Source: Elusimicrobiota bacterium (GTDB taxonomy: Bacteria > Elusimicrobiota > Elusimicrobia > F11). From it: a stretch of DNA of 64,000 nucleotides. The position numbers and the translations under genes are program-made. Position 1 is the first letter of the stretch. Every line of letters starts with the position of its first letter. Of this stretch, positions 19,851-62,660 are shown piece after piece. Location of the stretch: assembly GCA_022072025.1 (NCBI GenBank), contig JAJVIP010000003.1, positions 1 to 64,000 on the forward strand, given 5' to 3'. The notes below the pieces were generated by a model. That model did no database searches, was not told where the DNA came from, and saw only the letters and a program-made list of their open reading frames with translations.

Positions 19851-21735
<1,885 letters not shown>

Positions 21736-25373: not shown

Positions 25374-26414
25374 CTATTCTCCATGTTTTAACAAGTACTC
25401 TGGATTAATACATTTGAATGACAGGCGACCAAGATCTGGATCTCGCGTCTCTAAAACTGGGCGGATAACGATTCCCTCTGCCCAAACTTCTGGATTGAGC
25501 TTCGACTTACGAGTAGCCAGGGCGACTAGTTCATCTACGGTACTGGGGAGTTTAAACATAGGATCTACCCATGGTACAGACTTTAATCCCAAATCTATTA
25601 AGATGTCTGCTAAGGTGGGGGAACTAACATACTCTCCAGTTTGCATATCATAAACATTATAAAAAAGGATTCTCTGACCCTTAAGTTTAAGCCTATTGGC
25701 TTGGATACCTTCCCCAATTAGTTCTCCCTGGAGTGCCCAGCGGGAATCTTTTAGTTTTTCTTTGAGTCCCAACTCGTTGGCTACCTTCCAAAAACTGTTT
25801 CCCTCAGACTCTAGGAGGTTGATAGAGCGGGAGCAAACATTTAATTCTCCATCCTTCCAGTATATGGTCACAGAGGATCCATCTACCTTTTCTGTGATAT
25901 AGAAAGTATCAGTTTGATATCTTTCTAGAATCTCTGGACAACCCTGAATTCTAGGCTCATCTGTCTTAGGAATAAAGCTGGGGAATAACCCTTTGGCTAC
26001 GCCAGCTAACTGGGCGGGCATTGGGGGTTCATATTTATGTACGCCAAGAATACCCGTGACATCATCTCCCTCTTGAAGAAAATCTCTTCCAAGAGATTGG
26101 TGGATAACTGTAATGGGTAGACATAATCCTTGGCTAATTTGCCCCCGCAAGCGGATAGTTCTAAGACGGATCCCCTCTTCTTCTGCCCCATCGATTAACA
26201 TTTTTTTGGTACCATTTTTCTTTAAGAACTCATATCTAAAGTCATCGGCGGGCAAGAATGAGTCCACCTCATAATACACACATAAATCCCCAGGTTTGAA
26301 CTCACCCTTCTTTACCACTACATGCCACCCTAGAACAGTAGCCACCTCAATGGCATCTGCTCCCTCAATGGGTTTGATGTCTATAATCTTTTGGACACTA
26401 GCTAGTTTTCTCAT
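25374..26414 (-). CDS. ATP-dependent RNA ligase, DraRnl/Rnl5-like (nick-sealing family)
   Basis: N-terminal KLASVQKIIDIKPIEGADAIEVATVLGWHVVVKKGEFKPGD OB-like domain. Nucleotidyltransferase motif I EKVDGSS, motif IV EGIVIR, motif V FKCINPEY. Confidence 0.6.
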   Translation of the reverse strand: MRKLASVQKIIDIKPIEGADAIEVATVLGWHVVVKKGEFKPGDLCVYYEVDSFLPADDFRYEFLKKNGTKKMLIDGAEEEGIRLRTIRLRGQISQGLCLPITVIHQSLGRDFLQEGDDVTGILGVHKYEPPMPAQLAGVAKGLFPSFIPKTDEPRIQGCPEILERYQTDTFYITEKVDGSSVTIYWKDGELNVCSRSINLLESEGNSFWKVANELGLKEKLKDSRWALQGELIGEGIQANRLKLKGQRILFYNVYDMQTGEYVSSPTLADILIDLGLKSVPWVDPMFKLPSTVDELVALATRKSKLNPEVWAEGIVIRPVLETRDPDLGRLSFKCINPEYLLKHGE

Positions 26415-27685: not shown

Positions 27686-28063
27686 TTAAAATGATCTACT
27701 AGCTCCCCCACCAGAGAATACTCCTCCCCCGAATCCTCCGAAGCCACCAAAGGTGGAAGTGCTGGGGGTGCTATGGAATCCTCCGCTACTGAAGAAGCTA
27801 CTGTCGTCATCGTCATCGTCGCTATCAAACCAGGAGCTAACTTTCTCCCTGATTGTGGGAGTTTGTTCGATGTCACATTTTAGACAATATTGCTCTTTGG
27901 TATCTGGGTTAGAGATACGAACAGCTAGGCGTTTGAGGGTTGTAAGATCTCCCTCAGCTACCTGATCTAGATCAAGATTAACCATCTTGTGTCCGCAGTT
28001 TTCGCACTCCACAACCTCTACGGTTTGTTTTTGTAGTTCTATCATTTCTCCTACTTCTATCAT
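27686..28063 (-). CDS. zinc-ribbon protein with acidic linker and Gly-rich C-terminus
   Basis: CENCGH...CLKCD, a DDDDDD run, and a GGFGGFGGGVFSGGG tail resembling the Gly-rich C-termini of TPM-domain (YgcG-like) proteins. Confidence 0.35.
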   Translation of the reverse strand: MIEVGEMIELQKQTVEVVECENCGHKMVNLDLDQVAEGDLTTLKRLAVRISNPDTKEQYCLKCDIEQTPTIREKVSSWFDSDDDDDDSSFFSSGGFHSTPSTSTFGGFGGFGGGVFSGGGASRSF

Positions 28064-28536
28064 TTTACCTCCTCAATTATTGCAGTTACTCCTGATAATA
28101 CTCCCCCATCCCAGTCTGCATTCTTGAGATAAGGAATCACTTTATTGTCGAGGATTCTACCTGCCTCAGCGTCAGTAAGTTTTTCTTCTAGTCCCCTTCC
28201 CACTTCAATCCTAAGTTTGCGGTCAGTAGTAGCGATAAGAAAAATAACTCCATTGTCTTTCCCCTCATATCCTGGCTTCCACGCCTCGGCTAGGTTAATA
28301 GAGTATTCTTCTATGCTCTCTGCCCCCGTGGAGGGGACGGTTACAACGGCTATTTGAGCTTTTTCATCAAACTCTTTGAGCTGATTACTAACCTTAAGCT
28401 CTGTTTCTTCTGAGAGGACATTAGAGGTATCAACCACATAGCCAGTTGGGGAGGGATAGACAGTTTCTGGTAGTTGTATTTGAGTACATCCTCCGAGTAA
28501 TAGTGCTGCAACTAAGACTACTAGTAAGTATTTCAT
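28060..28536 (-). CDS. TPM-domain lipoprotein (DUF477 / TLP18.3-like)
   Basis: Lipobox LLLGGC, then YVVDTSNVLSEETELKVSNQL...IAVVTVPSTG...GVIFLIATTDRKLRIEVGRGLE, typical of TPM domains. Confidence 0.6.
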   Translation of the reverse strand: MKYLLVVLVAALLLGGCTQIQLPETVYPSPTGYVVDTSNVLSEETELKVSNQLKEFDEKAQIAVVTVPSTGAESIEEYSINLAEAWKPGYEGKDNGVIFLIATTDRKLRIEVGRGLEEKLTDAEAGRILDNKVIPYLKNADWDGGVLSGVTAIIEEVK

Positions 28537-29114
28537 TATTTGACCTCCAAGTTAACACTAGGAGCATATTGGGCGTCCTGTGTTTGGATAGTAAATAGTG
28601 GCTTCTCGTCGAAGTTAAACATCCCAGCTAGGAAGTTGGTTGGGAACTTCTTGATATAGATATTAAAGTCTCTGGCGTCCTCATTATAGCGATCTCTGGC
28701 TACAGTGATCCTATTCTCGGTCCCAGCTAGTTCATCCATTAACCCCTGGACAGTTTGATCCGCCTTTAGATTTGGATAGTTTTCCATGATCACCATTAAA
28801 CGAGAGAGAGCTCCTTCAATTTCTCCAGTTGCTTTTATTCTCTCATCTGATCCCTTATTACTATTATCATAGTGAGCACGGGCGTCGGCGATGGCTTTAA
28901 ATACCGCCTGTTCATGAGCCATATACCCTTTAACCGAGTTTGCTAGGTTGGGGATAAGGTCATATCTACGCTGGTATTGGGTTTCTACTTTTGCCCAAGT
29001 AGTAGACACCTCTTCGTTGCGAGTAACCATTGTGTTGTAGGCACCAGAAACCCAGTTAAAAATTATGATTGCGACTAGGGCAATACTCCCTAAAGTTACT
29101 AAAAGTTTATTCAT
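28536..29114 (-). CDS. LemA-family membrane protein
   Basis: N-terminal TM, then YNTMVTRNEEV...W..VETQYQRRYDLIPNL, the LemA signature. Translationally coupled to the TPM gene. Confidence 0.7.
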   Translation of the reverse strand: MNKLLVTLGSIALVAIIIFNWVSGAYNTMVTRNEEVSTTWAKVETQYQRRYDLIPNLANSVKGYMAHEQAVFKAIADARAHYDNSNKGSDERIKATGEIEGALSRLMVIMENYPNLKADQTVQGLMDELAGTENRITVARDRYNEDARDFNIYIKKFPTNFLAGMFNFDEKPLFTIQTQDAQYAPSVNLEVK

Positions 29115-33240: not shown

Positions 33241-33828
33241 TCATTTTTCTCCTGGAGCATATCCCAAATTAACTTCGGGATGAACCTTTAATGATTGTCC
33301 CACCCATAGAGAGCTCAAAAGCTTAATAAGTTGGTCCCTAGTGGCTTCGTCTTTTTTAATATAACAAACTGTCATGTGTGGCATATATCCAGAGAAGGTA
33401 TCGATGTGTGGGAGGAACTGGAGGCGAGAATGTCCCTCGAGCAATTTCTCGTCTACCTCAATGTGAGCCACAATACAATAGTAGGGTTCATCCTCATAGG
33501 GCGACTCAAAAAACCCAATGTCCTGAATTTTAACTTCGTCAATACTCCAATCCTTTAACACGGCATGAACCTGGTCGGCCCAAGTATGGGCATTTTCCAT
33601 AAGACCGTAAAGGAGAGTAACATGGGCATTCTTTCCTGCTACCCAACCCTTAATCCATTTGCGATCCTCATTTTGGGCGTAGTACAACATCTCTCCATCG
33701 CCCATCCCGTCTATACTCAACATAGAATCTAGTGGTTCTAGATCTAACATTACACATCCTAATCGATCAACATTTACATTTAAATCTTTATATATACCTT
33801 CGAACATGTGAGAGTTAAGTTGTGGCAT
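33241..33828 (-). CDS. 2H-phosphoesterase superfamily protein (LigT/ThpR-like 2',3'-cyclic phosphodiesterase)
   Basis: Two HxTx motifs, NAHVTLLYG and MPHMTVCYI, about 85 residues apart. This is the defining signature of the 2H fold. Confidence 0.55.
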   Translation of the reverse strand: MPQLNSHMFEGIYKDLNVNVDRLGCVMLDLEPLDSMLSIDGMGDGEMLYYAQNEDRKWIKGWVAGKNAHVTLLYGLMENAHTWADQVHAVLKDWSIDEVKIQDIGFFESPYEDEPYYCIVAHIEVDEKLLEGHSRLQFLPHIDTFSGYMPHMTVCYIKKDEATRDQLIKLLSSLWVGQSLKVHPEVNLGYAPGEK

Positions 33829-34933: not shown

Positions 34934-35794
34934 CTAGAAATCACCGTAGTCAACTTGTAGACAAGTTAGCCCCAGCGATCTCCACATATCAACCACCTGT
35001 TGGCGATCATCTAAAACAAATAGGACATTATATTTTCCCTTAATCTCAGCGTCATAAATTTCTTTTTTAATAATATTGTCGGTGCGATGATCCCCAGTTT
35101 TTCTCATAAAGAGGGAGATACGATCATCTAAAACAGAATGTTTGGCTAACCAGCGAACTGTTGGTTCACGATCTTTATCCTCTCTTCCAGAAAGATAGAT
35201 CGGGCGGACCCATTGTTTAGCATAATATGTTTTGAGAATATTTATTATTGGTTCGTTTGGCAAATCGTTCTCGCAAGTGGATGCGTCATAAGGATCACGA
35301 CCATTCCCTAGTGCGATGGTCCCATCTAGGTCACAAATGATAACTGTCGCCAGAGCAGGATCGAATGTGGGGCGTTCTACGGCTCTAAATTCTAGTTGAC
35401 GAGCCATCCTTCGGATCACCTTACTACCGACTGAATTTGGGCGGAGCAGATCCCTCTCTATACATGTTTCAACGGGGACATTGGTAAAGTCTTGAGTTTC
35501 AACCTCAGCATTATATTTGGCGGCAATTCTCCACATAGTATTTTTATGTTTACTATGTAGATTTGTATCATCCACAATTATGTCATGACCGCCCTTTAGA
35601 GATTCTTCTACAATAAAATCACGAACTTTCAAAACAAATTCTTCCCGCCCCTTTGAATGTACACCGACATGAAGCATGTCCCGCAAACTATCTTTATTAA
35701 CTCTAACTGTGTTGGGGTTTTGGGTTTGGTACTCTCTCGCCCAAGTTGTTTTACCAGAACCTGGAAGTCCTTTTGTCAATATAATCTTATTCAT
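34934..35794 (-). CDS. pnkp: polynucleotide 5'-kinase / 3'-phosphatase (T4 Pnkp-like)
   Basis: N-terminal P-loop kinase (GLPGSGKTT) and C-terminal HAD phosphatase (ICDLDGTIA, DxDGT motif I). Same domain order as T4 Pnkp. Confidence 0.8.
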   Translation of the reverse strand: MNKIILTKGLPGSGKTTWAREYQTQNPNTVRVNKDSLRDMLHVGVHSKGREEFVLKVRDFIVEESLKGGHDIIVDDTNLHSKHKNTMWRIAAKYNAEVETQDFTNVPVETCIERDLLRPNSVGSKVIRRMARQLEFRAVERPTFDPALATVIICDLDGTIALGNGRDPYDASTCENDLPNEPIINILKTYYAKQWVRPIYLSGREDKDREPTVRWLAKHSVLDDRISLFMRKTGDHRTDNIIKKEIYDAEIKGKYNVLFVLDDRQQVVDMWRSLGLTCLQVDYGDF

Positions 35795-36676: not shown

Positions 36677-37747
36677 TCATGCTACCGCCTCAGATTGTTG
36701 TTTAAATGGTCGCTCTGCCACGGGGCGAAGCTTCTTCCATATCATATGTGCATAGGGACGCTTATCAAGCATAGAGAATAAGATTGGGGCATACTCTCCA
36801 TCTTTCATAAACTCCATAGCTAGTGTCTTGCGATCTTTCACTCCACTACCAGTAGTGGTTATAAAAAGTGTTTTAGCTATTTGATCAATGGTATTATATT
36901 GGAGAATAAGGTTGTCGGCCGTATCTTTTACCCAGTGGTAAAACTCTTCTGGGACTCTTTCCATCAACTCTCCGAGGTCTTGCCCGTTACGAAGGAGATC
37001 CCAAATAGTCTTTTTATTCACCCCAGTTAATAGTCTGTGTAGGCGTACATATTCGTCAAACTTAAACTTAGTCCTCATCCCCGATTGGAAGCGGATAACA
37101 AACCCTTCACTGTCATTTTTTTGGATTGCCTTAATCTTTTCTAGATCATTTAACCCATCATATCTGCGTACTATTTTCATTTTCCCCGAAAACGCCATCT
37201 GTAGTGTCTCATATGGTACTTCTACACCATCCCTAGTGTTAAAGGCTGTGAGAAGATATAGATCTCTATCTAATCCATAATTAACTACAATCCTATTTTC
37301 TGGATAGATAATTTCGAACAAGTATGTGTATTCTGGGTTAAATTCTACTTGAGAATATTTTTCCTGAAGCATTTTATTCGCCTCAATAGCTTGGTCACTC
37401 TCAAAAGATCCCCGCGTGGCGATAAAGGGTTTCCCCCCAACAAAGTACATAATCCCAAGCGATCCATCCATCTTCTCAAATACTTCGAATGGCTCTGTAA
37501 GTGGTAATTTGGGTAAACCGTTATTTTCTTGATGTTCAGATAAGTTCCAGAACTTCTGGAATGGCCTGGCAACAACCTGGTTGGAAGCGTCCATAATAAG
37601 ACCCCGACAGGTAATTGTCTCGGGAGTCCAAACTTTATCAAATTGAGCTTTTTGGGAATAGTTATAAATCCACAATTCTTCGGTGGGGTGTTTTGTTTTA
37701 TCTATATACTTCTGGTCTATCAACTCTTGTAGTCGAGCGAGATCCAT
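36677..37747 (-). CDS. ATP-dependent RNA ligase (Rnl1/RnlA-like)
   Basis: Motif I EKMDGSLG (KxDG), motif IV EGFVIR, motif V KFKFDEY. 356 aa. Confidence 0.6.
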   Translation of the reverse strand: MDLARLQELIDQKYIDKTKHPTEELWIYNYSQKAQFDKVWTPETITCRGLIMDASNQVVARPFQKFWNLSEHQENNGLPKLPLTEPFEVFEKMDGSLGIMYFVGGKPFIATRGSFESDQAIEANKMLQEKYSQVEFNPEYTYLFEIIYPENRIVVNYGLDRDLYLLTAFNTRDGVEVPYETLQMAFSGKMKIVRRYDGLNDLEKIKAIQKNDSEGFVIRFQSGMRTKFKFDEYVRLHRLLTGVNKKTIWDLLRNGQDLGELMERVPEEFYHWVKDTADNLILQYNTIDQIAKTLFITTTGSGVKDRKTLAMEFMKDGEYAPILFSMLDKRPYAHMIWKKLRPVAERPFKQQSEAVA

Positions 37748-39473: not shown

Positions 39474-39794
39474 TTAACTATTAGCTATTTCCAATAGCAC
39501 ATCGGCGTGACACGGCTTGTCTAGGGGACACCAACAGGCCAGGTTGAATCCCCTTAAATCTCTTTTCGCCGCCTGAGAGCGGGTACATGATGTGTCATAT
39601 GCTTGGTCGTGTACTCCTGACATAAGCCATTCTTTATATTTAGCTATCGCCCCTCCCCTACCCAAAACCATAATTCCATTAATTCTATCTCCTTCTTTAT
39701 ATGGGTTTCCCCAGAAGGTTGGTCTTCCTACATAAATTGTATTTGGTGGCATTTTCCACCCCTTAGTGCGTTTACGCTGTACTCGAATCGGCAT
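39474..39794 (-). CDS. DUF4326-like protein
   Basis: YVGRPTFWGNPY...KYKEWL...LRGFNLACWCPLDKPCHADVLLE matches the DUF4326 pattern (GNPf...CwC...CHadvL). Confidence 0.4.
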   Translation of the reverse strand: MPIRVQRKRTKGWKMPPNTIYVGRPTFWGNPYKEGDRINGIMVLGRGGAIAKYKEWLMSGVHDQAYDTSCTRSQAAKRDLRGFNLACWCPLDKPCHADVLLEIANS

Positions 39795-40578
39795 GGATCA
39801 TCTCCATAACTTCATATAATAATTTATTTATTTTAATTCGATTATTTGTATCTGGGATTGTAGAAATTTGATACTCATATTCAAATTTTTGGAAGAGTTG
39901 TTCGGCGAGAGCTTTAACCTGATCTAAACTATATTCTCCGAGCTTAATATCTATTAATTCTTGTCTATCTTCAGTCCGATACACAATCGGAGCACCATCT
40001 CGGAGAAATTCTATCCCCATTTTGAGTAGTCTAACAAGATGGGAAGCATTTTTACTATCATATCCGATTAGATCTACCATTTTTTTTCTCTTTTCGCCCA
40101 TATATCCCCGATATGGGTTAGATTCATTCATTCTTTTGAGCTGAGCCCTAGCATATCCCCCAAAACAGTTGTAAACTAGGTTTTTAGAAACAAAAAGGTG
40201 GCGGTTATCAATCACATACTGCCAAACGGGGGAGATATTAATATAATCCTCTTTCCGCATATAAAGTGTATTGATTACATTGGGGTTCATCCCGCTCAAA
40301 AGCACAAACATTTTGTGGAGCTCATATCCCACCTCATCAATCGCATCTTGTTTAACTTCGTATGTTTCTTTGGCATGGGCATACCCCTCTAGGGTATAGT
40401 AATATTGTTTGGGATAAGCGAATACGGAAATGGTGTCTATGTCATCTGTCCCCCATTTTTCCTCTGGTGGAACATATAAGTTGTGAGCGTGAGATCCCCG
40501 ATATGCAAGCATAAGGGGTATTTTCTCAAACATTTTATTATAAATGCTTTCTGGTTTGCCCAATCTTTCCCTGACCAT
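39772..40578 (-). CDS. Pol-beta superfamily nucleotidyltransferase
   Basis: YRGSHAHNLYVPPEEKWGTDDIDTISV fits the hG[GS]x(9-13)Dh[DE]h signature. 268 aa. Confidence 0.4.
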   Translation of the reverse strand: MVRERLGKPESIYNKMFEKIPLMLAYRGSHAHNLYVPPEEKWGTDDIDTISVFAYPKQYYYTLEGYAHAKETYEVKQDAIDEVGYELHKMFVLLSGMNPNVINTLYMRKEDYINISPVWQYVIDNRHLFVSKNLVYNCFGGYARAQLKRMNESNPYRGYMGEKRKKMVDLIGYDSKNASHLVRLLKMGIEFLRDGAPIVYRTEDRQELIDIKLGEYSLDQVKALAEQLFQKFEYEYQISTIPDTNNRIKINKLLYEVMEMIHADSSTA

Positions 40579-52838: not shown

Positions 52839-52909
52839 GGCCAGCTAGTTCAGTGGTAGAACATCGGTGTTACATACCGACTATGAGGGTTCGATTCCTT
52901 CGCAGGCCA
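52839..52909 (+). tRNA. tRNA-Val (anticodon UAC)
   Basis: Manual cloverleaf: acceptor GGCCAGC/GCAGGCC (one A-A mismatch), D-arm GUUC-AGUGGUA-GAAC, anticodon stem UCGGU/ACCGA with loop GUUACAU, T-arm GAGGG-UUCGAUU-CCUUC. Confidence 0.55.
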
Positions 52910-53335
52910 CATCGGATACTTAGGAGAGGGTCTTACTGGCCGTAAGCACTTAACCTCTAAGTTGATTAAGCTAACCCGCGTGGAGGCGGTCCATCCCAAC
53001 TGTTTGGACGCTCCCTTGCTAGACTAGGAAGCATGAGCGGTGGAAGGTGTTAAGACCGAAATTGCTAATCAGCTACCTTCGCCTGAGTATCGGATCGCTT
53101 TAGGTCGGGGGGAAACTAGACTGAGTTTTCTCGAGTCTGATATAGCCCCCCGCCCATTTTTCCGAGCTCAGTGGGTGAAAGACACTCGTATGCTAGAGGG
53201 CTATGGAATGTAAGTGGGAATCCAGAAGAGTCCCCTTTTCCTGAAGTGTGGTGCTGGCCGTCGCCTTCCGAGCTAACACCCTTGCTCCTATGAGGAACGC
53301 AGGGTAATGGTAAGTTCTCTAGCACACCCGCACTA
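52910..53335 (+). other. 426-nt noncoding, highly structured spacer inside the tRNA array (unknown RNA element)
   Basis: No credible ORF. Hairpins CCGC-GUGGAG-GCGG and GUCCA...UGGAC. A long composite hairpin GGUCGGGGGG-AAACU-[AGACUGAG-UUUU-CUCGAGUCU]-GAUAUAG-CCCCCCGCC sits near 53115-53170. Confidence 0.3.
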
Positions 53336-53414
53336 GGCGATATGGTGAAATGGTAGACACGCCTGCCTTAAGAGCAGGTCCGCAAGGGTAAAGGTCCGAG
53401 TCCTTTTATCGCCA
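53336..53414 (+). tRNA. tRNA-Leu (anticodon UAA), type II
   Basis: Acceptor GGCGAUA/UAUCGCC, anticodon stem CCUGC/GCAGG with loop CUUAAGA, long variable arm, T-arm AAAGG-UCCGAGU-CCUUU, discriminator A. Confidence 0.65.
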
Positions 53415-53418
53415 CCTC

Positions 53419-53492
53419 GGGCGACTACCCCAATTGGTAGAGGGAACGGTTTTAGAAACCGTGTAGTCAGAGTTCGAATCTCTGGTTGCCCA
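53419..53492 (+). tRNA. tRNA with anticodon UAG (Leu by code) but short class-I variable arm
   Basis: Acceptor GGGCGAC/GUUGCCC (G5-U68 wobble), anticodon stem ACGGU/ACCGU with loop UUUAGAA, 5-nt variable loop, T-arm CAGAG-UUCGAAU-CUCUG. Confidence 0.5.
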
Positions 53493-53497
53493 CATTT

Positions 53498-53568
53498 AGA
53501 TCTCTAGCTCAATGGTAGAGCTGTCGGCTTATACCCGACTGACAGAGGTTCGATTCCTTTGAGATCTA
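53498..53568 (+). tRNA. tRNA-Ile (anticodon UAU), A1-U72
   Basis: Acceptor AGAUCUC/GAGAUCU, D-arm GCUC-AAUGGUA-GAGC, anticodon stem GUCGG/CCGAC with loop CUUAUAC, T-arm AGAGG-UUCGAUU-CCUUU. Confidence 0.55.
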
Positions 53569-53572
53569 CAGA

Positions 53573-53644
53573 GTTCCTATAGTTCAATGGATAGAATAAT
53601 TCCCTTCTAAGGAATAGATTCGGGTTCAAGTCCTGGTGGGAACA
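53573..53644 (+). tRNA. tRNA-Arg (anticodon UCU)
   Basis: Acceptor GUUCCUA/UGGGAAC, anticodon stem AUUCC/GGAAU with loop CUUCUAA, T-loop UUCAAGU. Confidence 0.55.
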
Positions 53645-53680
53645 CTTGTTTCAGTAAAGCAAGTATGTCATAATATATTT

Positions 53681-54091
53681 ATGACAAATTCAAATGAATA
53701 TATGAGGGGATATCTTAAAAAGAGATATCATTCTCGCCGAGAAGGGGCTGTCAAACTTCTGGGGGGATGTTGTTCAAAATGTGGATCTCTAAAAAAATTA
53801 GAACTTGATCATAAAGACTATACAAAAAAATCTTTTGATATTTCTAAGTTGTGGAATATATCTTATATAAAATATAATGAGGAAATAAAAAAATGTCAAT
53901 TATTATGTAAATCTTGTCATATTAAAAAAACAAGAGAAGATTTAGGACAAGAAAACGCAAGAGAAACCCATGGAACCTTATCCGCATGGAGATATTGTAA
54001 GTGTCAATTGTGCCGAGAGGCATTTAATAAATATATGAGAGAATATAAAAGCAGGGTTCATAGCAAAGTGGCTACTGCACTCGCCTCTTAA
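53681..54091 (+). CDS. HNH endonuclease inserted in the tRNA array
   Basis: ELDHKDYTKKSFDISKLWN...LLCKSCHIKKT HNH core with CCSKCG zinc knuckle. Very AT-rich. The track ORF 53636..54091 overlaps the upstream tRNA-Arg and the downstream tRNA-Lys by about 38 nt. Confidence 0.65.
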   Translation: MTNSNEYMRGYLKKRYHSRREGAVKLLGGCCSKCGSLKKLELDHKDYTKKSFDISKLWNISYIKYNEEIKKCQLLCKSCHIKKTREDLGQENARETHGTLSAWRYCKCQLCREAFNKYMREYKSRVHSKVATALAS

Positions 54092-54126
54092 GCGAGATAT
54101 CGACAGTTCGATTCTGTCTGAGCCCA
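54054..54126 (+). tRNA. tRNA-Lys (anticodon CUU)
   Basis: Acceptor GGGUUCA/UGAGCCC (U4-G69 wobble), anticodon stem CUCGC/GCGAG with loop CUCUUAA, T-arm GACAG-UUCGAUU-CUGUC. Confidence 0.55.
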
Positions 54127-54130
54127 CATT

Positions 54131-54207
54131 GGGGTTGTAGCATAGTGGCCTATTGCATCCGCCCTTTAAGCGGAACATCGGTGGTCCGAATCCACCCAGC
54201 CCCACCA
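54131..54207 (+). tRNA. tRNA-Lys-like (anticodon UUU) with C at position 33, CCA encoded
   Basis: Acceptor GGGGUUG/CAGCCCC, anticodon stem UCCGC/GCGGA with loop CCUUUAA (C33 is unusual), T-arm GGUGG-UCCGAAU-CCACC, 3' ACCA encoded. Confidence 0.45.
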
Positions 54208-54209
54208 AT

Positions 54210-54281
54210 GGCCCTGTCGTCTATCGGCTAGGACACCAGGTTTTCATCCTGGTAAGTAGGGTTCAATTCCCTACAGGGTCA
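54210..54281 (+). tRNA. tRNA-Glu (anticodon UUC)
   Basis: Acceptor GGCCCUG/CAGGGUC, D-arm GUCU-AUCGGCUA-GGAC, anticodon stem CCAGG/CCUGG with loop UUUUCAU, T-arm UAGGG-UUCAAUU-CCCUA. Confidence 0.6.
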
Positions 54282-54287
54282 CAAGTT

Positions 54288-54361
54288 CATCCGTTGGCCA
54301 AGCAGTAAGGCGACTGTTTGCAGAACAGTTATCACAGGTGCAAATCCTGTACGGATGTCCA
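54288..54361 (+). tRNA. tRNA-Cys (anticodon GCA), CCA encoded
   Basis: Acceptor CAUCCGU/ACGGAUG, anticodon stem ACUGU/ACAGU with loop UUGCAGA, T-arm ACAGG-UGCAAAU-CCUGU, 3' UCCA. Confidence 0.5.
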
Positions 54362-54368
54362 ATAAATT

Positions 54369-54440
54369 GGTAGAGCCGTCGCGAAGTCGAGACGCCTGTT
54401 TGAAGCACAGGAGAAGTGGGAGCATTACCTACCTCTACCA
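54369..54440 (+). tRNA. degenerate tRNA-like gene (anticodon GAA, Phe) lacking canonical D-loop GG and T-loop TPsiC
   Basis: Acceptor GGUAGAG/CUCUACC perfect, anticodon stem CCUGU/ACAGG with loop UUGAAGC, but D-arm GUC-GCGAAGUCGA-GAC and T-arm GUGGG-AGCAUUA-CCUAC are non-canonical. Confidence 0.35.
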
Positions 54441-54441
54441 C

Positions 54442-54512
54442 TGTGCCTTAGTTCAACGGTAGAATACTGCTCTGATAAAGCGGGGACATAAGTTCAACTC
54501 TTTTAGGCACAA
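54442..54512 (+). tRNA. tRNA-Ile (anticodon GAU), U1-A72
   Basis: Acceptor UGUGCCU/AGGCACA, D-arm GUUC-AACGGUA-GAAU, anticodon stem CUGCU/AGCGG with loop CUGAUAA, T-loop UUCAACU. Confidence 0.5.
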
Positions 54513-54562
54513 CTCATTTCAGAAAAGACAGAAAAAGTGCCTTTAAGTGAAATGAGAATCGT

Positions 54563-54638
54563 GGTGGTATTGATGTAGCGGTAGTCATACTTGGCTGTGA
54601 ACCAAGAAGAGACAGTTCAACTCTGTCATACCACCCCA
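54563..54638 (+). tRNA. tRNA-His (anticodon GUG) with genomically encoded G-1 opposite C73 and encoded CCA
   Basis: G-1 at 54563, acceptor GUGGUAU/AUACCAC, anticodon stem CUUGG/CCAAG with loop CUGUGAA, T-arm GACAG-UUCAACU-CUGUC, 3' C-CCA. Confidence 0.65.
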
Positions 54639-54669
54639 TAGTATGCTAGAATTGGGAAAAAGGAGGAAT

Positions 54670-55098
54670 ATGATTGTATACACGGGCGGGACTTTTGACT
54701 TGTTTCATTGGGGACATATTAATTTTCTTAAAGAGTGTAGAAAATTGGCGGGACCCGAAGGAAAAGTATGGGTAGCTCTCAACACAGATGAGTTTGTTCT
54801 TAGGTATAAACAACAGAAAACTGTGTTTACTTTGGTTGAGCGGAAATTAATGCTTGAAGCGAGTGGTTTGGTGGATAAAGTAATCACCAATATCGGGGAC
54901 GAAGATTCTAAACCAGCCATCGAACATGTTCGTCCAAATATTGTCGCAATTTCCTCTGATTGGGCACGCCGAGACTACTATGGACAAATGAGGTTTACTC
55001 AAGACTGGCTAGATGAGCGGGGTATAATTCTTGCCTACATCCCCCACACTAAGGGAATCTCCTCAACAGAGATCAGATATAGGCTAAAGGCGGTGTAG
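54670..55098 (+). CDS. cytidylyltransferase-family nucleotidyltransferase (TagD-like, HxGH motif)
   Basis: GGTFDLFHWGHINFLKECRKL...ALNTDEFV...ISSDWARRDYYGQ...YIPHTKGISSTEIRYRL parallels glycerol-3-phosphate cytidylyltransferase TagD. SD AAAGGAGG before the ATG at 54670 (track start is 54643). Confidence 0.65.
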   Translation: MIVYTGGTFDLFHWGHINFLKECRKLAGPEGKVWVALNTDEFVLRYKQQKTVFTLVERKLMLEASGLVDKVITNIGDEDSKPAIEHVRPNIVAISSDWARRDYYGQMRFTQDWLDERGIILAYIPHTKGISSTEIRYRLKAV

Positions 55099-55159
55099 TG
55101 TAGTGGTAGCACAATGGGTTCTCAGCCCATTATCTGGAGTTCGAATCTCCACGCCGTCA
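55089..55159 (+). tRNA. tRNA-Glu (anticodon CUC)
   Basis: Acceptor GGCGGUG/CGCCGUC (two G-U wobbles), D-arm GUGU-AGUGGUA-GCAC, anticodon stem AUGGG/CCCAU with loop UUCUCAG, T-arm UGGAG-UUCGAAU-CUCCA. Confidence 0.6.
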
Positions 55160-55216
55160 CAGTTGATTTTTTAGTCAAAATATGCTAAAATAATACGCCA
55201 TAGGGGAGATTTATAT

Positions 55217-60243: not shown

Positions 60244-60297
60244 TTACTACGAGAGAGTATTTTATATATTTATATATAAAATACTCTCTCGTAGTAA
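60244..60297. repeat. 54-bp near-perfect palindrome (25-bp arms, 4-nt centre)
   Basis: TTACTACGAGAGAGTATTTTATATA-ttta-TATATAAAATACTCTCTCGTAGTAA. Immediately preceded by a second palindrome TCCTAATATTAGGA (60228-60241). Lies at the convergence of + genes and the - tRNA array. Confidence 0.6.
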
Positions 60298-60304
60298 GGG
60301 TTTG

Positions 60305-60385
60305 CGGAGGGTATAGGAGTTGAACCTATTACGCCTTTCGGCGACGGGTTAGCGACCCGTTGTATTACCGTCCTACCCACCCTCC
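60305..60385 (-). tRNA. tRNA-Ser (anticodon GCU), type II, C33
   Basis: Acceptor GGAGGGU/ACCCUCC, anticodon stem ACGGG/CCCGU with loop UCGCUAA, long variable stem CGCC-GAAA-GGCG, T-loop UUCAACU. Confidence 0.55.
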
Positions 60386-60389
60386 AGAG

Positions 60390-60471
60390 CGGAAGGGACA
60401 GGATTCGAACCTGCACGCCCTTTCAGGCAGTTGTTTTCAAGACAACCGAGCTACCACTGCTCAACCCTTCC
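60390..60471 (-). tRNA. tRNA-Ser (anticodon UGA), type II
   Basis: Acceptor GGAAGGG/CCCUUCC, D-arm GAGC-AGUGGUA-GCUC, anticodon stem GUUGU/ACAAC with loop CUUGAAA, long variable arm, T-loop UUCGAAU. Confidence 0.6.
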
Positions 60472-60475
60472 AATG

Positions 60476-60559
60476 TGGCCACTGTAGGAATCGAACCCAC
60501 CTAGTCCGAGGGACAAGTGCTTTACAGGCACCCTGGAACACCAGTTCCTTATAATGGCC
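60476..60559 (-). tRNA. tRNA-Tyr (anticodon GUA), type II
   Basis: Acceptor GGCCAUU/AGUGGCC, anticodon stem GGUGC/GCACU with loop CUGUAAA, long variable arm GUCC-CUC-GGAC, T-arm GUGGG-UUCGAUU-CCUAC. Confidence 0.5.
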
Positions 60560-60563
60560 AATG

Positions 60564-60634
60564 TTTCGGGAGAAGGGTTCGAACCTCCGTTAGCTGGGTC
60601 AAAGCCAGCTGTCCTACCACTAGACGATCCCGAA
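60564..60634 (-). tRNA. tRNA-Gln (anticodon UUG), U1-A72
   Basis: Acceptor UUCGGGA/UCCCGAA, D-arm GUCU-AGUGGUA-GGAC, anticodon stem GCUGG/CCAGC with loop CUUUGAC, T-arm GGAGG-UUCGAAC-CCUUC. Confidence 0.55.
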
Positions 60635-60639
60635 TCGTG

Positions 60640-60711
60640 TGCCCCCAGAAAGAATCGAACTTTCATTATCTGTTTCGTAGACAGACATCCTATCCGTTAA
60701 ATGACAGGGGC
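60640..60711 (-). tRNA. tRNA-Arg (anticodon ACG)
   Basis: Acceptor GCCCCUG/UGGGGGC, anticodon stem UCUGU/ACAGA with loop CUACGAA, T-arm GAAAG-UUCGAUU-CUUUC. Confidence 0.55.
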
Positions 60712-60716
60712 TTGTG

Positions 60717-60788
60717 TTGCGAGAGATGGGTACGATCCACCATCTCAACTTTCAGAGAGTTGTGTCCTACCTGTTAGACGATCTCGCA
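60717..60788 (-). tRNA. tRNA-Gln (anticodon CUG), U1-A72, slightly degenerate T-loop
   Basis: Acceptor UGCGAGA/UCUCGCA perfect, D-arm GUCU-AACAGGUA-GGAC, anticodon stem CAACU/AGUUG with loop CUCUGAA, T-arm GGUGG-AUCGUAC-CCAUC. Paralog of the UUG tRNA-Gln. Confidence 0.5.
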
Positions 60789-60793
60789 TTGTG

Positions 60794-60867
60794 CTCTAGG
60801 AGAGGGACTCGAACCCCCGACCCCTCGATTAACAGTCGAGTGCTACCACCAGCTGAGCTACCCTAGA
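60794..60867 (-). tRNA. tRNA-Asn (anticodon GUU), U1-A72
   Basis: Acceptor UCUAGGG/UCCUAGA, anticodon stem CUCGA/UCGAG with loop CUGUUAA, T-arm GGGGG-UUCGAGU-CCCUC. Confidence 0.5.
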
Positions 60868-60872
60868 TTGGG

Positions 60873-60946
60873 CGGGATTGAGCAGATTCGAACTGCCGAT
60901 TTCTCGCGTGACAGGCGAGTGGAATGAGCCACTATCCTACAATCCC
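60873..60946 (-). tRNA. tRNA-Asp (anticodon GUC)
   Basis: Acceptor GGGAUUG/CAAUCCC, anticodon stem CUCGC/GCGAG with loop CUGUCAC, T-arm GGCAG-UUCGAAU-CUGCU. Confidence 0.55.
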
Positions 60947-61332
60947 ATTTTATAAATACGATTAGATGTTCTTATGGCATGACAGTTAGAACAAACCAAA
61001 TCACATTTTTTTATTTCACTTTTAATCTTTTCTATACTCGCAGATTTTTGGACCAGGGCGGAGATAGAATGGTAGATGTCCTTTTTAGGTATTCTGTGAT
61101 CAAATTCCATACAGCATGACGGGAAAATACCACCACAATCAAGACAAGGTTTCCCCAGTTTATACTCTTCAATAAATTTAATATTTCTTGCCACATATGA
61201 AGGTCTGTGTGATTTTCTATTGGCACGATATTTTTCTTTGTTGTTTTGATAATGTTTTTGTTGATAAGCTTTTTGCTTAAGTTTGTCTTTGTATCCCATA
61301 GACACATTATATGTTAAAGTTCTATTCTCCAC
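60937..61332 (-). CDS. HNH endonuclease
   Basis: CLDCGG...CCMEFDHRIPKKD...LVCSNCHAIRT HNH/zinc motif. Its 3' end overlaps the tRNA-Asp 5' end by 10 nt. Confidence 0.7.
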   Translation of the reverse strand: MENRTLTYNVSMGYKDKLKQKAYQQKHYQNNKEKYRANRKSHRPSYVARNIKFIEEYKLGKPCLDCGGIFPSCCMEFDHRIPKKDIYHSISALVQKSASIEKIKSEIKKCDLVCSNCHAIRTSNRIYKMGL

Positions 61333-61352
61333 AATAGAGAATCGTACTTATG

Positions 61353-61424
61353 TTGCGGAGAACAGAGTCGAACTGTTTCCCCCTGCTTATGAGACAGGTG
61401 TGCGAGCCGTCACACTCCCCCGCA
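61353..61424 (-). tRNA. tRNA-Met (anticodon CAU; elongator or lysidine-Ile type), U1-A72
   Basis: Acceptor UGCGGGG/CUCCGCA, D-arm GUGU-GACGGCUC-GCAC, anticodon stem CCUGU/GCAGG with loop CUCAUAA, T-arm AACAG-UUCGACU-CUGUU. No initiator features. Confidence 0.55.
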
Positions 61425-61608: not shown

Positions 61609-61977
61609 ATGTCAAGTTCAGTTAATAGTATGTCCAGAGATCAATGGCCATTTACTAGGTTAAGTAATGCAATCCAGTCCCAGACAACCTGGAACTCGAA
61701 TTTAGAGGGTAAGATGCTCACCCTTGTCGATGCGGTAATCGCAGACAAAGAACAACGAGCGGCAATAAAGTCGCTCATGAAACAGAGCATCAGAGACTAC
61801 TACCACGATCAGAACTATCAGGTAGAGTCAATGATCAACCAGTTTACCGACGCTTTTGAAGGAGAAAAAATCGAATATACCGATTTTGTCCCTGGGCTTG
61901 GGACACCTGGTGCCGACATTAGAAAAGCGTACGATGGGACCGTTCCACCATCAACAAATTTATTTAAAAAGAATTAA
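61609..61977 (+). CDS. hypothetical protein
   Basis: 122 aa with SD AGGAGG. Confidence 0.35.
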   Translation: MSSSVNSMSRDQWPFTRLSNAIQSQTTWNSNLEGKMLTLVDAVIADKEQRAAIKSLMKQSIRDYYHDQNYQVESMINQFTDAFEGEKIEYTDFVPGLGTPGADIRKAYDGTVPPSTNLFKKN

Positions 61978-62012
61978 GATCCAGATTTAAATTGGTTAAA
62001 TATTAGTTAAAT

Positions 62013-62041
62013 TTGTCCCCACTGTTTTATTGTGATATAAT
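62013..62041 (+). promoter_or_regulatory. sigma70 promoter TTGTCC-17-TATAAT driving the tmRNA
   Basis: ttgtcc 62013-62018 and tataat 62036-62041. The predicted start falls on G 62049, the first base of the tmRNA. Confidence 0.5.
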
Positions 62042-62048
62042 ATACAAA

Positions 62049-62433
62049 TCGGGGGCGACTTGCTTTGACAGGTTTCTCTCAGAATAATCTGCATGTCGGC
62101 TTTGACCAAGAGCCGTTAAACAGGGTTAAAAAACAAATGCTAAATTTTTGAAGCATATAGCAAATAAAGTTACCGCTATCCTTGACGGGATATGGGACGC
62201 TTTATCTGTTCCTTCAGTTACAGCTTTCGCTTAACTGACGGCGTTCGACATGAACTTGCTTGTGGGAAAGTGTCGGGCGAGAATACACACAAGATCAGCT
62301 TTTGATTGAGCATAATATCAATCACAACCACAGGCGTAGTGGTTAAAACGCTGGCGTCCTCAACGGATGAAAAACATGTAGACGGTTATTTTGTGAAGGT
62401 CTGGACGGGATGTCACTCATCCCCGCCTCCACC
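62049..62433 (+). ncRNA. ssrA: tmRNA (SsrA), one-piece, about 385 nt
   Basis: 5' GGGGGCGACUUGCUUUGACAGG... resembles E. coli GGGGCUGAUUCUGGAUUCGACGGG. 3' end GGAC-GGGAU-GUCACUC-AUCCC-CGCCUCC-A-CC forms a T-arm plus acceptor that pairs with the 5' GGGGGCG, including the G3-U70 Ala identity pair. Internal CUGCAUGUCGG is like the E. coli pseudoknot-1 GGUGCAUGCCGAGG. Candidate tag ORF GCA AAU AAA ... GCU UUC GCU UAA (ANKVTAILDGIWDALSVPSVTAFA) at about 62160-62234. Confidence 0.65.
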
Positions 62434-62435
62434 CC

Positions 62436-62660
62436 ATGCTAACCAGCGAACAAAAAACCAGAGTCTCTGGATGGCTTGATATGGTTGAGTCTGGAAAGGT
62501 GTTAGAACCTGAACCAGAAACTCTTGTTGAGTTAATCCAAGACTATATTTTGTCTTGTGGTATGGTTGAACATACTGTCGGTGGGGAATTGCATAATTTT
62601 CACTTAGGAAGAGCTGCTTTTATCGAGGAGTTTTTTGGGAGATTGACAGAATCTAGTTAA
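62436..62660 (+). CDS. hypothetical protein
   Basis: 74 aa. Confidence 0.3.
   Translation: MLTSEQKTRVSGWLDMVESGKVLEPEPETLVELIQDYILSCGMVEHTVGGELHNFHLGRAAFIEEFFGRLTESS

Follow-up and report, generated by a model that had tools for sequence, protein, structure and literature searches.

A probably functional, phage-encoded one-piece tmRNA with an elbow design shared by smpB-linked cellular tmRNAs

One-piece tmRNAs of the E. coli SsrA type (RF00023) carry a canonical set of determinants, namely the G3-U70 pair together with a discriminator A, and an Ala resume codon preceded by an A-rich stretch; binding of SmpB requires that their D-loop and T-loop interact (PMC3968760). The tags that tmRNAs encode are reported to range from 8 to 35 residues (PMC3968760), with a modal length of 10 residues (PMC3968760, PMC11915505). 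Phages encode such RNAs as well: about 2.3% of their genomes contain a tmRNA gene (PMC9004378; also PMC7162821, PMC1475703), and documented carriers include cluster C mycobacteriophages, Stenotrophomonas phage Marzo and Streptomyces BE2 phages, along with OM43 phage Melnitz, pelagimyophages (in which the tmRNA is two-piece) and huge phages; proposed roles are to keep the hijacked translation machinery running or to tag proteins selectively (PMC9004378, PMC7162821, PMC1475703, PMC8928761). Mycobacteriophage DS6A bears a tmRNA-like RNA that lacks a tag frame, interacts with host trans-translation and acts as an inhibitor (PMC11915505). The phage tmRNA described here is one more divergent example of an established class (about 2% of phage genomes), and the novelty implied in an earlier note on this DNA was overstated.

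The locus lies on the + strand of a 64,000-nt stretch of deposited sequence, hereafter the window (GCA_022072025.1, contig JAJVIP010000003.1, positions 1 to 64,000). The earlier note had read it as a phage-encoded tmRNA with its own promoter, a reading supported by the covariance model, the pseudoknots and the phage gene context. Its parts and immediate surroundings are as follows:

62013..62018, + strand: -35 hexamer TTGTCC, from the promoter scan and family alignment; the weakest -35 of the phage family
62033..62044, + strand: extended -10 block TGATATAATATA (TGn + TATAAT + ATA), the mark of a recurrent phage promoter class
62042..62050, + strand: 9-nt spacer ATACAAATC, read from the sequence; holds the putative transcription start
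62051..62434, + strand: tmRNA (ssrA) gene of the one-piece standard form, from RF00023, ARAGORN -ps90 and the fold z-score
62051..62057, + strand: 5' strand of the acceptor stem, GGGGGCG, forming 7/7 pairs with CGCCUCC at 62424..62430
62058..62066, + strand: reduced D-loop ACUUGCUUU, 9 nt and stemless, in which a single G (62062) replaces the canonical GG
62069..62075, 62080..62087 and 62088..62095, + strand: 5' strand of helix 2 (H2a, H2b and H2c/d, respectively), pairing with 62375..62403
62097..62129, + strand: PK1, with stem 1 formed by 62097..62101 and 62111..62115 and stem 2 by 62102..62107 and 62124..62129
62139..62234, + strand: predicted tag frame, with the GCU resume codon at 62139..62141, 31 codons (AKFLKHIANKVTAILDGIWDALSVPSVTAFA) and UAA at 62232..62234
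62215..62237, + strand: helix 5 hairpin, 62215..62220 with 62232..62237 (6 bp), also present in the MFE fold
62242..62293, + strand: PK2, with stem 1 formed by 62242..62250 and 62271..62279 and stem 2 by 62259..62264 and 62288..62293
62294..62374, + strand: variable 3' domain in the place of PK3/PK4, from RNAfold of the sub-region
62375..62403, + strand: 3' strand of helix 2, including the conserved CAUGUAGAC block
62407..62423, + strand: T arm, with stem GGGAU/AUCCC (5/5 pairs covary) and the 7-nt loop GUCACUC at 62412..62418
62431 and 62432..62433, + strand: discriminator A381 and CC, from the pair check
62436..62660, + strand: 74-aa ORF, from the ORF list; begins 2 nt past the tmRNA

Set against the one-piece tmRNAs of RF00023, the locus shares the acceptor G3-U70 pair, the discriminator A, the T arm, a D-loop that lacks a stem, a long helix 2, a PK1 placed about 9 nt before the Ala codon at which translation resumes, a stop codon in helix 5, PK2 and the conserved GCAUG...CAUGUAGA blocks. 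It differs in its T-loop (GUCACUC rather than UUCRANY), in a D-loop with one G rather than GG, in a tag of 31 codons rather than the usual 10 (PMC3968760) that ends in AFA rather than LAA, in an unencoded CCA, in the lack of a linked smpB and in a PK3/PK4 region that seems to consist in part of hairpins. Like known phage tmRNAs, it resides in a large, tRNA-rich genome, and the Melnitz tmRNA likewise follows closely on an early promoter; unlike the marine permuted phage tmRNAs, it is one-piece and has no riboswitch. No sequence relative of it was found in INPHARED or IMG/VR: a blastn search of INPHARED with 61900..62600 gave no match, exact and degenerate 3'-end patterns returned from IMG/VR either nothing or chance matches other than tmRNA, and the elbow variant discussed below was not found in any IMG/VR contig. 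Homology searches with the flanking ORFs recovered the window's own proteins alone, and exact look-ups of four neighbouring ORFs led back to the same contig alone and so offered no microdiversity for comparison.

The RF00023 covariance model, a check proposed in the earlier note, scores the element at 74.6 bits, above the gathering score of 47 (E 3.8e-27), in an alignment that covers positions 1-374 of the 374-position model and is not truncated, and the MFE fold has a z-score of -5.3, with 0/100 shuffles folding as well. ARAGORN, likewise proposed, gave a split answer, making no call at its default setting and, with -ps90, reporting 62051..62433 with the same coordinates and tag. The individual elements that had been pointed out hold up on inspection: the element begins with GGGGGCGA at 62051, CGCCUCC-A-CC follows the T arm at 62424..62433, the G3-U70 pair is formed by G3 (62053) and U378 (62428) within a seven-pair acceptor stem, and the GCAUG(U)CGG block likened to SsrA aligns with the Rfam tmRNA consensus GCAUGCCGAGG. 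The G3-U pair is invariant in 8/8 aligned tmRNAs, and the phage copy has every canonical determinant, from G3-U70 and the discriminator A to the Ala resume codon and the A-rich upstream stretch, along with an A at -4.

The earlier note had allowed that the terminal pairing might be coincidental and a pseudoknot architecture absent; PK1 and PK2 are both present and covary with cellular tmRNAs. PK1 comprises 5 + 6 base pairs, both stems covarying, and ends 9 nt ahead of the GCU codon; by a crude single-sequence pseudoknot score it does not stand out, 19/200 shuffles scoring as high. PK2 (9 + 6 base pairs) is the top H-type pseudoknot of its region, is matched by 0/200 shuffles and shows compensatory changes in 13 of its 15 pairs. 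Helix 2 is built of 7 + 8 + 8 base pairs (23 bp), with compensatory changes in 13/23 pairs and 83-98% of alignment cells paired across its segments. Over the whole alignment of eight tmRNAs, 87.7% of cells are paired in the helices that the phage copy defines, a value that drops to 42-55% when the 3' partners are slid, and 0/500 shuffles reach the observed values. Compensatory changes affect 40/61 pairs, at the same alignment columns across seven cellular tmRNAs; the evidence is this same-column pairing in other tmRNAs. A count in which the phage copy retains pairing at 31 of 31 changed pairs is circular, the helices having been defined on the phage sequence, and was discarded. The variable 3' domain, which is not alignable to relatives, contains a hairpin (62303..62324), a candidate pseudoknot (62326..62352; matched by 3/200 shuffles) and a second hairpin (62355..62369).

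The promoter proposed in the earlier note, TTGTCC-17-TATAAT, is present as a sigma-70-like element at 62013..62041 and has, besides, a TG-extended -10; the gap between promoter and RNA, given there as 7 nt, is in fact 9 nt (ATACAAATC), counted from the end of TATAAT (62041) to G62051. The element belongs to a recurrent phage promoter class, TTGACA-17-TGnTATAAT-ATA. The exact 12-mer TGATATAATATA occurs in seven copies in the window, every one on the locally transcribed strand, and matches with at most two mismatches number 39, compared with 15.2 +/- 3.7 in shuffles, none of which (0/100) reached 39. Most copies of the family lie 17 nt after TTGACA and upstream of a Shine-Dalgarno sequence and ATG; at least 12 sites, the tmRNA promoter among them, stand ahead of phage genes. 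The tmRNA promoter is of the early type. Our promoter and terminator scan found no + strand terminator between 62434 and the next promoter at 62643, so the 74-aa ORF is probably co-transcribed with the tmRNA, whose 3' end must then come from processing. An identical protein to this ORF is recorded in NCBI and Logan, where it has no other homologues. The gene ends in ACCC and leaves CCA unencoded; since ACC is followed by C, the terminal A has to come from a post-transcriptional step, and the mature RNA would span 62051..62433 plus this added A. Most of the phage's 21 tRNA genes also lack a full encoded CCA and need the same CCA-adding step.

The tag reading frame of the earlier note survives at its end and changes at its beginning: GCU UUC GCU UAA does close the frame, at 62232..62234, whereas the proposed resume codon, GCA 62160, and the resulting 24 codons give way to a longer frame. 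Translation most likely resumes at GCU 62139, which shares the frame of GCA 62160 and precedes it by seven codons, as indicated by the Rfam alignment, by ARAGORN -ps90 and by a UG that is invariant at this column in the eight aligned tmRNAs; the frame is internal, with neither a start codon nor a Shine-Dalgarno site, and its stop UAA sits in the 3' strand of helix 5. At 41% GC an open frame of 31 codons has a chance probability of about 0.2 and is weak evidence alone. Its 31 codons place the tag inside the reported range, at three times the modal length, and its sequence is largely hydrophobic or amphipathic. Such a long, hydrophobic, AFA-ended tag invites the question of whether a protease reads it, and which one.

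Gur and Sauer are said to have found in 2008 that the long tags of the Mycoplasma type end in YAFA and are degraded by Lon. The Mesoplasma florum tag has about 27 residues and a C-terminal tail of the aromatic-A-F-A type. The ...TAFA end of the phage tag, and the ...YAFA ends of two cellular tmRNAs considered below (L010 and L013), resemble this tail; the likeness is one of tag length and tail, and neither GC content nor promoters point to Mollicutes.

The same properties of the tag could be those of a manipulative mimic, an RNA that competes with the host tmRNA for SmpB, AlaRS or stalled ribosomes and thereby blocks host trans-translation, appends a long hydrophobic tag that does not lead to degradation, or redirects proteins to a different protease. 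Early-promoter expression would suit such a takeover function, selective tagging of host proteins has been proposed as a possible role of phage tmRNAs (PMC9004378), and the CDS-less RNA of phage DS6A reportedly inhibits endogenous tmRNA in E. coli (cited in PMC11915505). Yet the phage gene described here, unlike that of DS6A, has a complete mRNA-like domain with resume and stop codons, and its tag looks normal for its class, given that cellular tmRNAs with the same elbow carry tags of 24-30 codons with YAFA, AYA or AVA tails. Although nothing in the sequence separates inhibition from rescue, we consider a mimic quite improbable and favor a functional tmRNA.

The elbow of this RNA is of a rare type. 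The earlier note had located GGGAU-GUCACUC-AUCCC correctly, at 62407..62423, and had taken its loop to be aberrant; the loop is, however, common to seven cellular tmRNAs. Both the canonical T-loop sequence (U54 U55 C56 R57 A58) and the D-loop GG are absent from the phage copy. Among 185,579 species genomes, the GUCACUC T-loop is found in seven genuine tmRNAs, all of which pass the Rfam threshold and each of which adjoins smpB (loci L006-L008 and L010-L013); at least four of the seven belong to Patescibacteria. A single-G D-loop accompanies this T-loop in 8/8 cases, the window included, whereas GG is present in 3/3 canonical controls, which are ordinary bacterial tmRNAs from one metagenome scan (n=3). 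The change is coordinated on both sides of the elbow, from GG to a single G in the D-loop and from U/A to G/C at T-loop positions 54/58. Because the same T-loop/D-loop combination is carried by seven smpB-adjacent cellular tmRNAs, the design evidently works in cells, and on this comparative evidence the GUCACUC loop is a natural variant and no bar to tmRNA membership. With SmpB binding at the elbow, the variant offers a ready-made case for the study of tmRNA-SmpB co-evolution. Default ARAGORN misses all eight tmRNAs with the elbow variant (seven cellular, one phage); since published phage surveys used ARAGORN, tmRNAs of phages and Patescibacteria have probably been under-counted.

Close parallels come from Microgenomates-group Patescibacteria (Shapirobacteria, Levyibacteriota) and from allied MAGs, whose tmRNAs share with the phage copy the identical 7-nt T-loop, the single-G D-loop, the AUGCY resume context, the UUAAACAG linker in PK1 and, in some, long tags (24-30 codons in three) with hydrophobic A-x-A tails. 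The Levyibacteriota tmRNA has the most similar 5' core (71%), has the GAUGUCACUCAUC T-arm core in common with the phage copy and encodes a 30-codon tag that starts with AK. The cellular genes lie directly downstream of smpB and encode CCA, neither of which is true of the phage gene, whose acceptor stem reads GGGGGCG where theirs reads GGGGAUG. A closer overall sequence kinship to the GUCACUC subclass, which we considered, is not borne out by the identity figures: the phage copy is 57-65% identical to the subclass over the whole molecule (35-71% in the 5' core) and 61-65% identical to the canonical controls, so pairwise identity is uninformative about subclass affinity. As identity does not favor the subclass, common descent is suggested by the elbow signature alone, and what we claim is a shared elbow design.

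These comparisons also bear on the possibility that the gene is a decaying, non-functional tmRNA that was captured from a cell and has been drifting, in which case its odd T-loop, its low score, the absence of CCA and the excessive length of the tag would be signs of erosion. The Rfam score of 74.6 bits is indeed well below those of most cellular tmRNAs examined (105-149 bits), default ARAGORN makes no call, the PK3/PK4 region is not clearly pseudoknotted, the -35 is weak and overall identity to every compared tmRNA is just 57-71%. However, two of the cellular GUCACUC tmRNAs have comparably low scores (67.6 and 80 bits), none of the seven is called by default ARAGORN, and a T-loop and D-loop identical to those of seven smpB-linked cellular tmRNAs do not look like random damage. 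The core helices are fully intact (61/61 pairs), the gene has kept its identity elements, its resume context, a stop codon placed in H5 and a family-type promoter, and an unencoded CCA is the norm for the tRNAs of this genome. Decay is, in our judgment, improbable, and we continue to regard the gene as functional.

The genome that carries the gene is that of a phage. Among its genes are those for an S78 prohead protease, an SU10-type capsid protein, a tail tube, a tape measure and Sipho_tail; the window and its flanks add ERF, HNH endonucleases and two tRNA arrays, and 21 tRNAs are encoded. RNA-repair and other RNA genes on the phage comprise Rnl1, Rnl2, PNKP, Thg1, RlaP, a 2'-5' ligase-like protein and Ro60; it also has GroEL and, with Ro60, a Y RNA. 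The phage is tailed and roughly 104 kb in size; in sister samples its contigs measure about 103.9 kb and break at different points, which suggests that the genome is complete and circularly permuted. Identical flanking proteins are nevertheless recorded in NCBI as 'MAG: Elusimicrobia bacterium', and tmRNA genes are common prophage integration sites, fragments of which occur in prophages (PMC9004378, PMC1635311); the locus could then be the cellular ssrA of an Elusimicrobia-labelled MAG or an attP-type remnant of the 3' end of a host ssrA. Against a cellular origin stand these permuted contigs, a window and flanks that are phage-like throughout, with one promoter motif all along, the lack of an adjacent smpB, unlike 7/7 cellular loci, and the count of Elusimicrobia genomes that match the T-loop pattern, which is 0 among the 185,579 species. 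An attP or ssrA-fragment origin was likewise rejected, the gene being full length and the window containing no second copy or 3'-end repeat. We therefore take the tmRNA to be phage-encoded and judge that it is very improbable that it is anything else. A phage-encoded SmpB was sought and none was found within the approximately 82 kb examined of the ~104-kb phage (window plus flanks); the tmRNA presumably uses host SmpB, and its function depends on a compatible one.

Homology, architecture, promoter family, tag frame and phage context together lead us to regard the locus, with good confidence, as a functional, phage-encoded, one-piece tmRNA. We posit that host RNA polymerase initiates at its early-type, extended -10 sigma-70 promoter, 3-4 nt upstream of G62051; with a gap of 9 nt and standard sigma-70 spacing, the likely start is the A at ~62047-62048, leaving a leader of 3-4 nt. 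Transcription would read through into the next ORF. The 5' leader would be trimmed by RNase P, a step taken from tmRNA maturation (PMC3968760), while a 3' endonuclease and exonucleases would trim the other end to ...ACC and the host CCA-adding enzyme would supply the terminal A. Host AlaRS could then charge the RNA with alanine via G3-U70 and the discriminator A, host SmpB could bind the tRNA-like elbow formed by the single-G D-loop and the GUCACUC T-loop, and the complex would enter ribosomes stalled on broken or non-stop mRNAs. Translation would resume at GCU 62139 and yield a 32-residue tag, made up of the charged Ala and 31 encoded residues and ending in AFA, and termination at the UAA in helix 5 would free the ribosome. 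The phage could benefit by keeping the ribosome pool available while host or phage mRNAs and tRNAs suffer damage, a proposal in keeping with the presence of 21 tRNA genes and of RNA-repair genes in the same genome.

If the elbow is needed for SmpB binding and the phage apparently has no smpB, the tmRNA should match the SmpB of its host. The elbow could thus serve as a host fingerprint, and the host might be a CPR bacterium rather than a member of the Elusimicrobia bin under which the sequence was deposited. This suggestion, which we offer tentatively and consider unlikely, draws on the occurrence of the GUCACUC/single-G design, among the 185,579 species genomes, only in the seven smpB-linked tmRNAs, at least four of them from Microgenomates-group Patescibacteria. 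Were it true, a ~104-kb siphovirus with more than 21 tRNAs, a tmRNA, GroEL, Ro60 with a Y RNA and a full RNA-repair kit would infect an ultra-small episymbiont with a genome of roughly 1 Mb, and tmRNA elbow type would become a new host-prediction marker; if the elbow tracks host SmpB, a Microgenomates host is a testable prediction for this well-equipped phage. LemA homologues are found in related phage contigs of 85-119 kb, of which the 20-kb stretches examined contain tRNAs and no tmRNA, and the nearest named cellular LemA homologues are those of Clostridia, at only 55-57% identity.

The 384-nt element at window 62051..62434 is a genuine phage-encoded tmRNA gene, complete and structurally intact. 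Starting with GGGGGCGA at 62051 and ending with GGGAU-GUCACUC-AUCCC-CGCCUCC-A-CCC at 62434, it matches Rfam RF00023 end to end (74.6 bits against a gathering score of 47, E 3.8e-27), bearing out the identity that an earlier note had proposed from the sequence, and it folds with an MFE of -127.1 kcal/mol (z = -5.3), equalled by none of 100 shuffles. ARAGORN gave a divided answer: at default settings it called 21 tRNAs in the window and no tmRNA, but with the threshold lowered to 90% it called one at 62051..62433. The main features of the locus are as follows.

62013..62041 (+), sigma-70-like promoter TTGTCC-17-TATAAT with a TG extended -10 (promoter scan)
62051..62434 (+), tmRNA gene (RF00023 end-to-end match)
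62139 (+), GCU resume codon of the tag (Rfam alignment, ARAGORN, 8-tmRNA alignment)
starting 2 nt past the tmRNA gene, 74-aa ORF (ORF list)

The window itself is phage DNA. It encodes structural proteins (tape measure, minor tail protein, tail tube), an ERF recombinase, HNH endonucleases and GroEL, together with RNA-related proteins (two RNA ligases, PNKP, Thg1, RlaP, a 2'-5' ligase-like protein, SpoU and Ro60), and its upstream flank adds an S78 prohead protease, an SU10-like capsid protein and Sipho_tail. Contigs of 103,872 and 103,985 bp that differ in their breakpoints encode identical proteins, suggesting that the genome is complete, circularly permuted and about 104 kb long. That the tmRNA is of non-phage origin, or an att remnant, is highly improbable given the full length of the gene, its phage context and the lack of any repeat of its 3' end.

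Every proposed base pair of the phage tmRNA, checked by script, is a standard pair, and it is unlikely that the gene is a decaying copy.

RNA 1-7 with 374-380, acceptor stem, including G3-U378 (7 pairs)
RNA 357-361 with 369-373, T stem (5 pairs)
RNA 19-25 with 347-353, helix 2a (7 pairs)
RNA 30-37 with 336-343, helix 2b (8 pairs)
RNA 38-45 with 325-332, helix 2c/d (8 pairs)
RNA 47-51 with 61-65 and 52-57 with 74-79, pseudoknot PK1 (5 + 6 pairs)
RNA 165-170 with 182-187, helix 5, with the UAA stop within its 3' strand (6 pairs)
RNA 192-200 with 221-229 and 209-214 with 238-243, pseudoknot PK2 (9 + 6 pairs)

When these helices were mapped onto the phage RNA aligned with seven cellular tmRNAs, 87.7% of the cells were paired, as against 42-55% after the 3' partners were slid by 1-3 columns; the phage sequence had served to define the helices, so the independent part of this test is the pairing of the same columns, with different bases, in the seven other sequences. 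Both sides changed in 40 of 61 pairs, and the observed values were reached by none of 500 shuffles. The pseudoknot architecture, which the earlier note had left to be checked, is present: both stems of PK1 and both stems of PK2 covary with the cellular tmRNAs, and PK2 is the top H-type pseudoknot of its region (0 of 200 shuffles score as high). Ahead of the helix 2 3' strand, where PK3 and PK4 would be expected, the final 80 nt hold two hairpins with a candidate pseudoknot between them (3 of 200 shuffles).

The promoter is where it had been described, although nine nucleotides (ATACAAATC), not seven, separate its -10 hexamer from G62051. Normal spacing would place the transcription start at an A near 62047-62048, which leaves RNase P a leader of 3-4 nt to remove. 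The promoter belongs to a recurrent phage family, in which its -35 is the weakest. The family block TGATATAATATA has exactly seven copies, every one on the transcribed strand and usually 17 nt past TTGACA, ahead of a Shine-Dalgarno sequence and ATG; TTGACA-N17-TGATATAATATA accounts for at least 12 sites on the transcribed strand, before genes with strong Shine-Dalgarno sequences, and the observed number of motif matches was reached by 0 of 100 shuffles.

24277, 30606, 41310 (-) and 57239, 62033, 62663 (+), examples of the promoter family (motif scan)

At the other end, no terminator was found 3' of the gene and the 74-aa ORF follows closely, so the tmRNA 3' end must come from processing; because the gene ends in ACCC, the last A must be added. 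Most tRNA genes of this phage likewise do not encode the full CCA.

The tag reading frame had been recognized correctly, but resumption had been placed at GCA 62160, for a tag of 24 aa. Translation most likely resumes at GCU 62139, seven codons upstream in the same frame, judging from where the consensus codon falls in the Rfam alignment, from the choice made by ARAGORN, and from the UG of AUGCY, which is invariant at this column in the alignment with the seven cellular tmRNAs. This GCU has an A at -4 inside an A-rich stretch and lies 9 nt 3' of PK1. Resumption there would yield a tag of 31 codons, AKFLKHIANKVTAILDGIWDALSVPSVTAFA, or 32 residues counting the charged alanine, near the upper end of the reported 8-35 range and far from the usual 10 (PMC3968760, PMC11915505).

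The GUCACUC T-loop, flagged earlier as non-canonical, has the sequence described but is a natural variant that also occurs in seven cellular tmRNAs. A scan of one genome from each of 185,579 species of bacteria and archaea for GGAC-N5-GTCACTC-N5-CNNCTCCACC returned eight matches, seven of them tmRNAs by Rfam (67.6-119.5 bits). As smpB lies directly upstream of ssrA in all seven (tblastn; Pfam SmpB match at three, E about 1e-47), the seven are working ssrA genes of the cells that carry them. Four have Patescibacteria labels (two Shapirobacteria and one Levyibacteriota, both within the Microgenomates group, and one unclassified); three (L006, L010 and L013) come from automated assemblies labelled "uncultured Gammaproteobacteria". 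The latter are MAG contigs bearing Patescibacteria-type smpB-ssrA loci. Their labels look wrong; that of L006, with Patescibacteria gene order and an SmpB 67% identical to that of Levyibacteriota, is doubtful.

In all eight GUCACUC tmRNAs, the phage one included, the D-loop carries one G with A or C after it, versus GG in each of three canonical controls. Since SmpB binding requires D-loop/T-loop interactions (reviewed in PMC3968760) and the two loops vary jointly, the combination seems to be an alternative elbow design in which the two loops are coordinated. Members of the group also share the AUGCY resume context; three of them have long tags (24, 26 and 30 codons), and hydrophobic tag tails occur (e.g., YAFA, AYA, AVA). 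Default ARAGORN called none of the eight (L006-L008, L010-L013 and the window) but all three controls; the variants need -ps95 or -ps90, and one was never called, so ARAGORN-based surveys will under-count this subclass. We claim a shared design, not proven descent, because the whole-molecule identity of the phage tmRNA is 57-65% to the group versus 61-63% to the controls; its best 5'-core match (71%) is the Levyibacteriota copy.

If the elbow type reports the host SmpB, the host would be a Patescibacteria (Microgenomates) cell and not the Elusimicrobia of the bin label, a possible but on balance doubtful assignment. The elbow is rare (7 of 185,579 species genomes) and linked to SmpB binding, and the phage has no detectable smpB: in the ~82 kb examined, no SmpB-like ORF was found (best tblastn E 0.58, best profile E 2.3). 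GC content is alike (38-46% in the window, 38-43% at six of the seven loci), and tRNA genes of Patescibacteria loci likewise generally lack an encoded CCA. Overall tmRNA similarity, however, lends no support; the phage acceptor stem is GGGGGCG versus GGGGAUG, the closest named cellular LemA homologues are from Clostridia (55-57% identity), the strong TTGACA/TGnTATAAT promoters and Shine-Dalgarno sites suit Bacillota equally, and 104 kb would be a large phage genome for a cell whose own genome is about 1 Mb. The ~104-kb contig (two assemblies) is deposited inside an NCBI 'Elusimicrobia bacterium' MAG with locus tags KCHDKBKB_..., probably a binning artefact or at best co-abundance.

The sequence provides alanine identity elements, a 31-codon tag frame, a family-type promoter and a tRNA-rich phage with RNA-repair genes. 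We posit that host RNA polymerase would transcribe the tmRNA early, RNase P would cut its 5' end, and the 3' end would be trimmed before the terminal A is added; host AlaRS could then charge it and host SmpB bind its variant elbow, allowing it to enter stalled ribosomes, where translation would resume at GCU 62139, tag the product and stop at UAA. The phage likely benefits by keeping ribosomes free while mRNAs and tRNAs are cut during infection, which fits its remaining translation and RNA-repair toolkit; similar roles have been proposed for other phage tmRNAs (PMC9004378, PMC7162821). A competitive or re-targeting mimic, with a precedent in the CDS-less DS6A RNA (PMC11915505), is unlikely.

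Phage-borne tmRNAs are already known as a kind, from 402 of 18,146 phage genomes (133 unique genes; PMC9004378), huge phages (PMC7162821) and cluster C mycobacteriophages (PMC1475703), and the present gene is a new, divergent example, distinguished by its Microgenomates-type elbow, its very long AFA-ended tag and its escape from default ARAGORN. No IMG/VR contig had this elbow, and no published description of it was found in a partial coverage of the literature. The elbow variant, the ARAGORN blind spot and the possible host marker merit follow-up.

INPHARED contains no close relative of the phage, the best protein identities there being 47-52%. A dense RNA-repair cluster (25374..26414, 33241..33828, 34934..35794, 36677..37747 and 39772..40578, all -) encodes an Rnl2-like ligase, a 2'-5' RNA ligase-like protein, PNKP (kinase + HAD phosphatase), an Rnl1-like ligase and an RlaP nucleotidyltransferase, suggesting a defence against RNA cleavage by host systems; the window's genes for Thg1, SpoU and CTP_transf_like are outside this cluster. 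A Y RNA upstream of a Ro60 gene is the classic rsr-yrlA arrangement, and a weak full-model match to Rfam YrlA (Y RNA-like; 19610..19741, -; 32.3 bits against a gathering score of 69, E 0.0041) lies just upstream of a Ro60/TROVE + vWA gene on the same strand (17899..19323, -), an arrangement of this type in a phage. Two opposed tRNA arrays, 52839..55160 (+) and 60304..61424 (-), hold 21 genes, including tRNA-Ile(UAU); within the second, an HNH-like ORF (60937..61332, -) is flanked by tRNA genes, and a 54-bp palindrome (60244..60297) abuts tRNA-Ser. GroEL (PHROG E 6.6e-150) and the LemA + TPM-domain pair are strongly similar to cellular proteins.

20137..21732, 28060..29114 (-), GroEL and the LemA + TPM-domain pair (similarity search)

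Three phage contigs of about 115-119 kb (JGI Ga0378408_0000282 and Ga0265297_10000491; Logan SRR22808009_370402) have the LemA-TPM module in common with the window phage, with 68-70% LemA identity. One of them carries an 8-tRNA array in which, unlike in the window phage, CCA is encoded in 8 of 8 genes, which hints at a wider phage group across hosts with different tRNA maturation.
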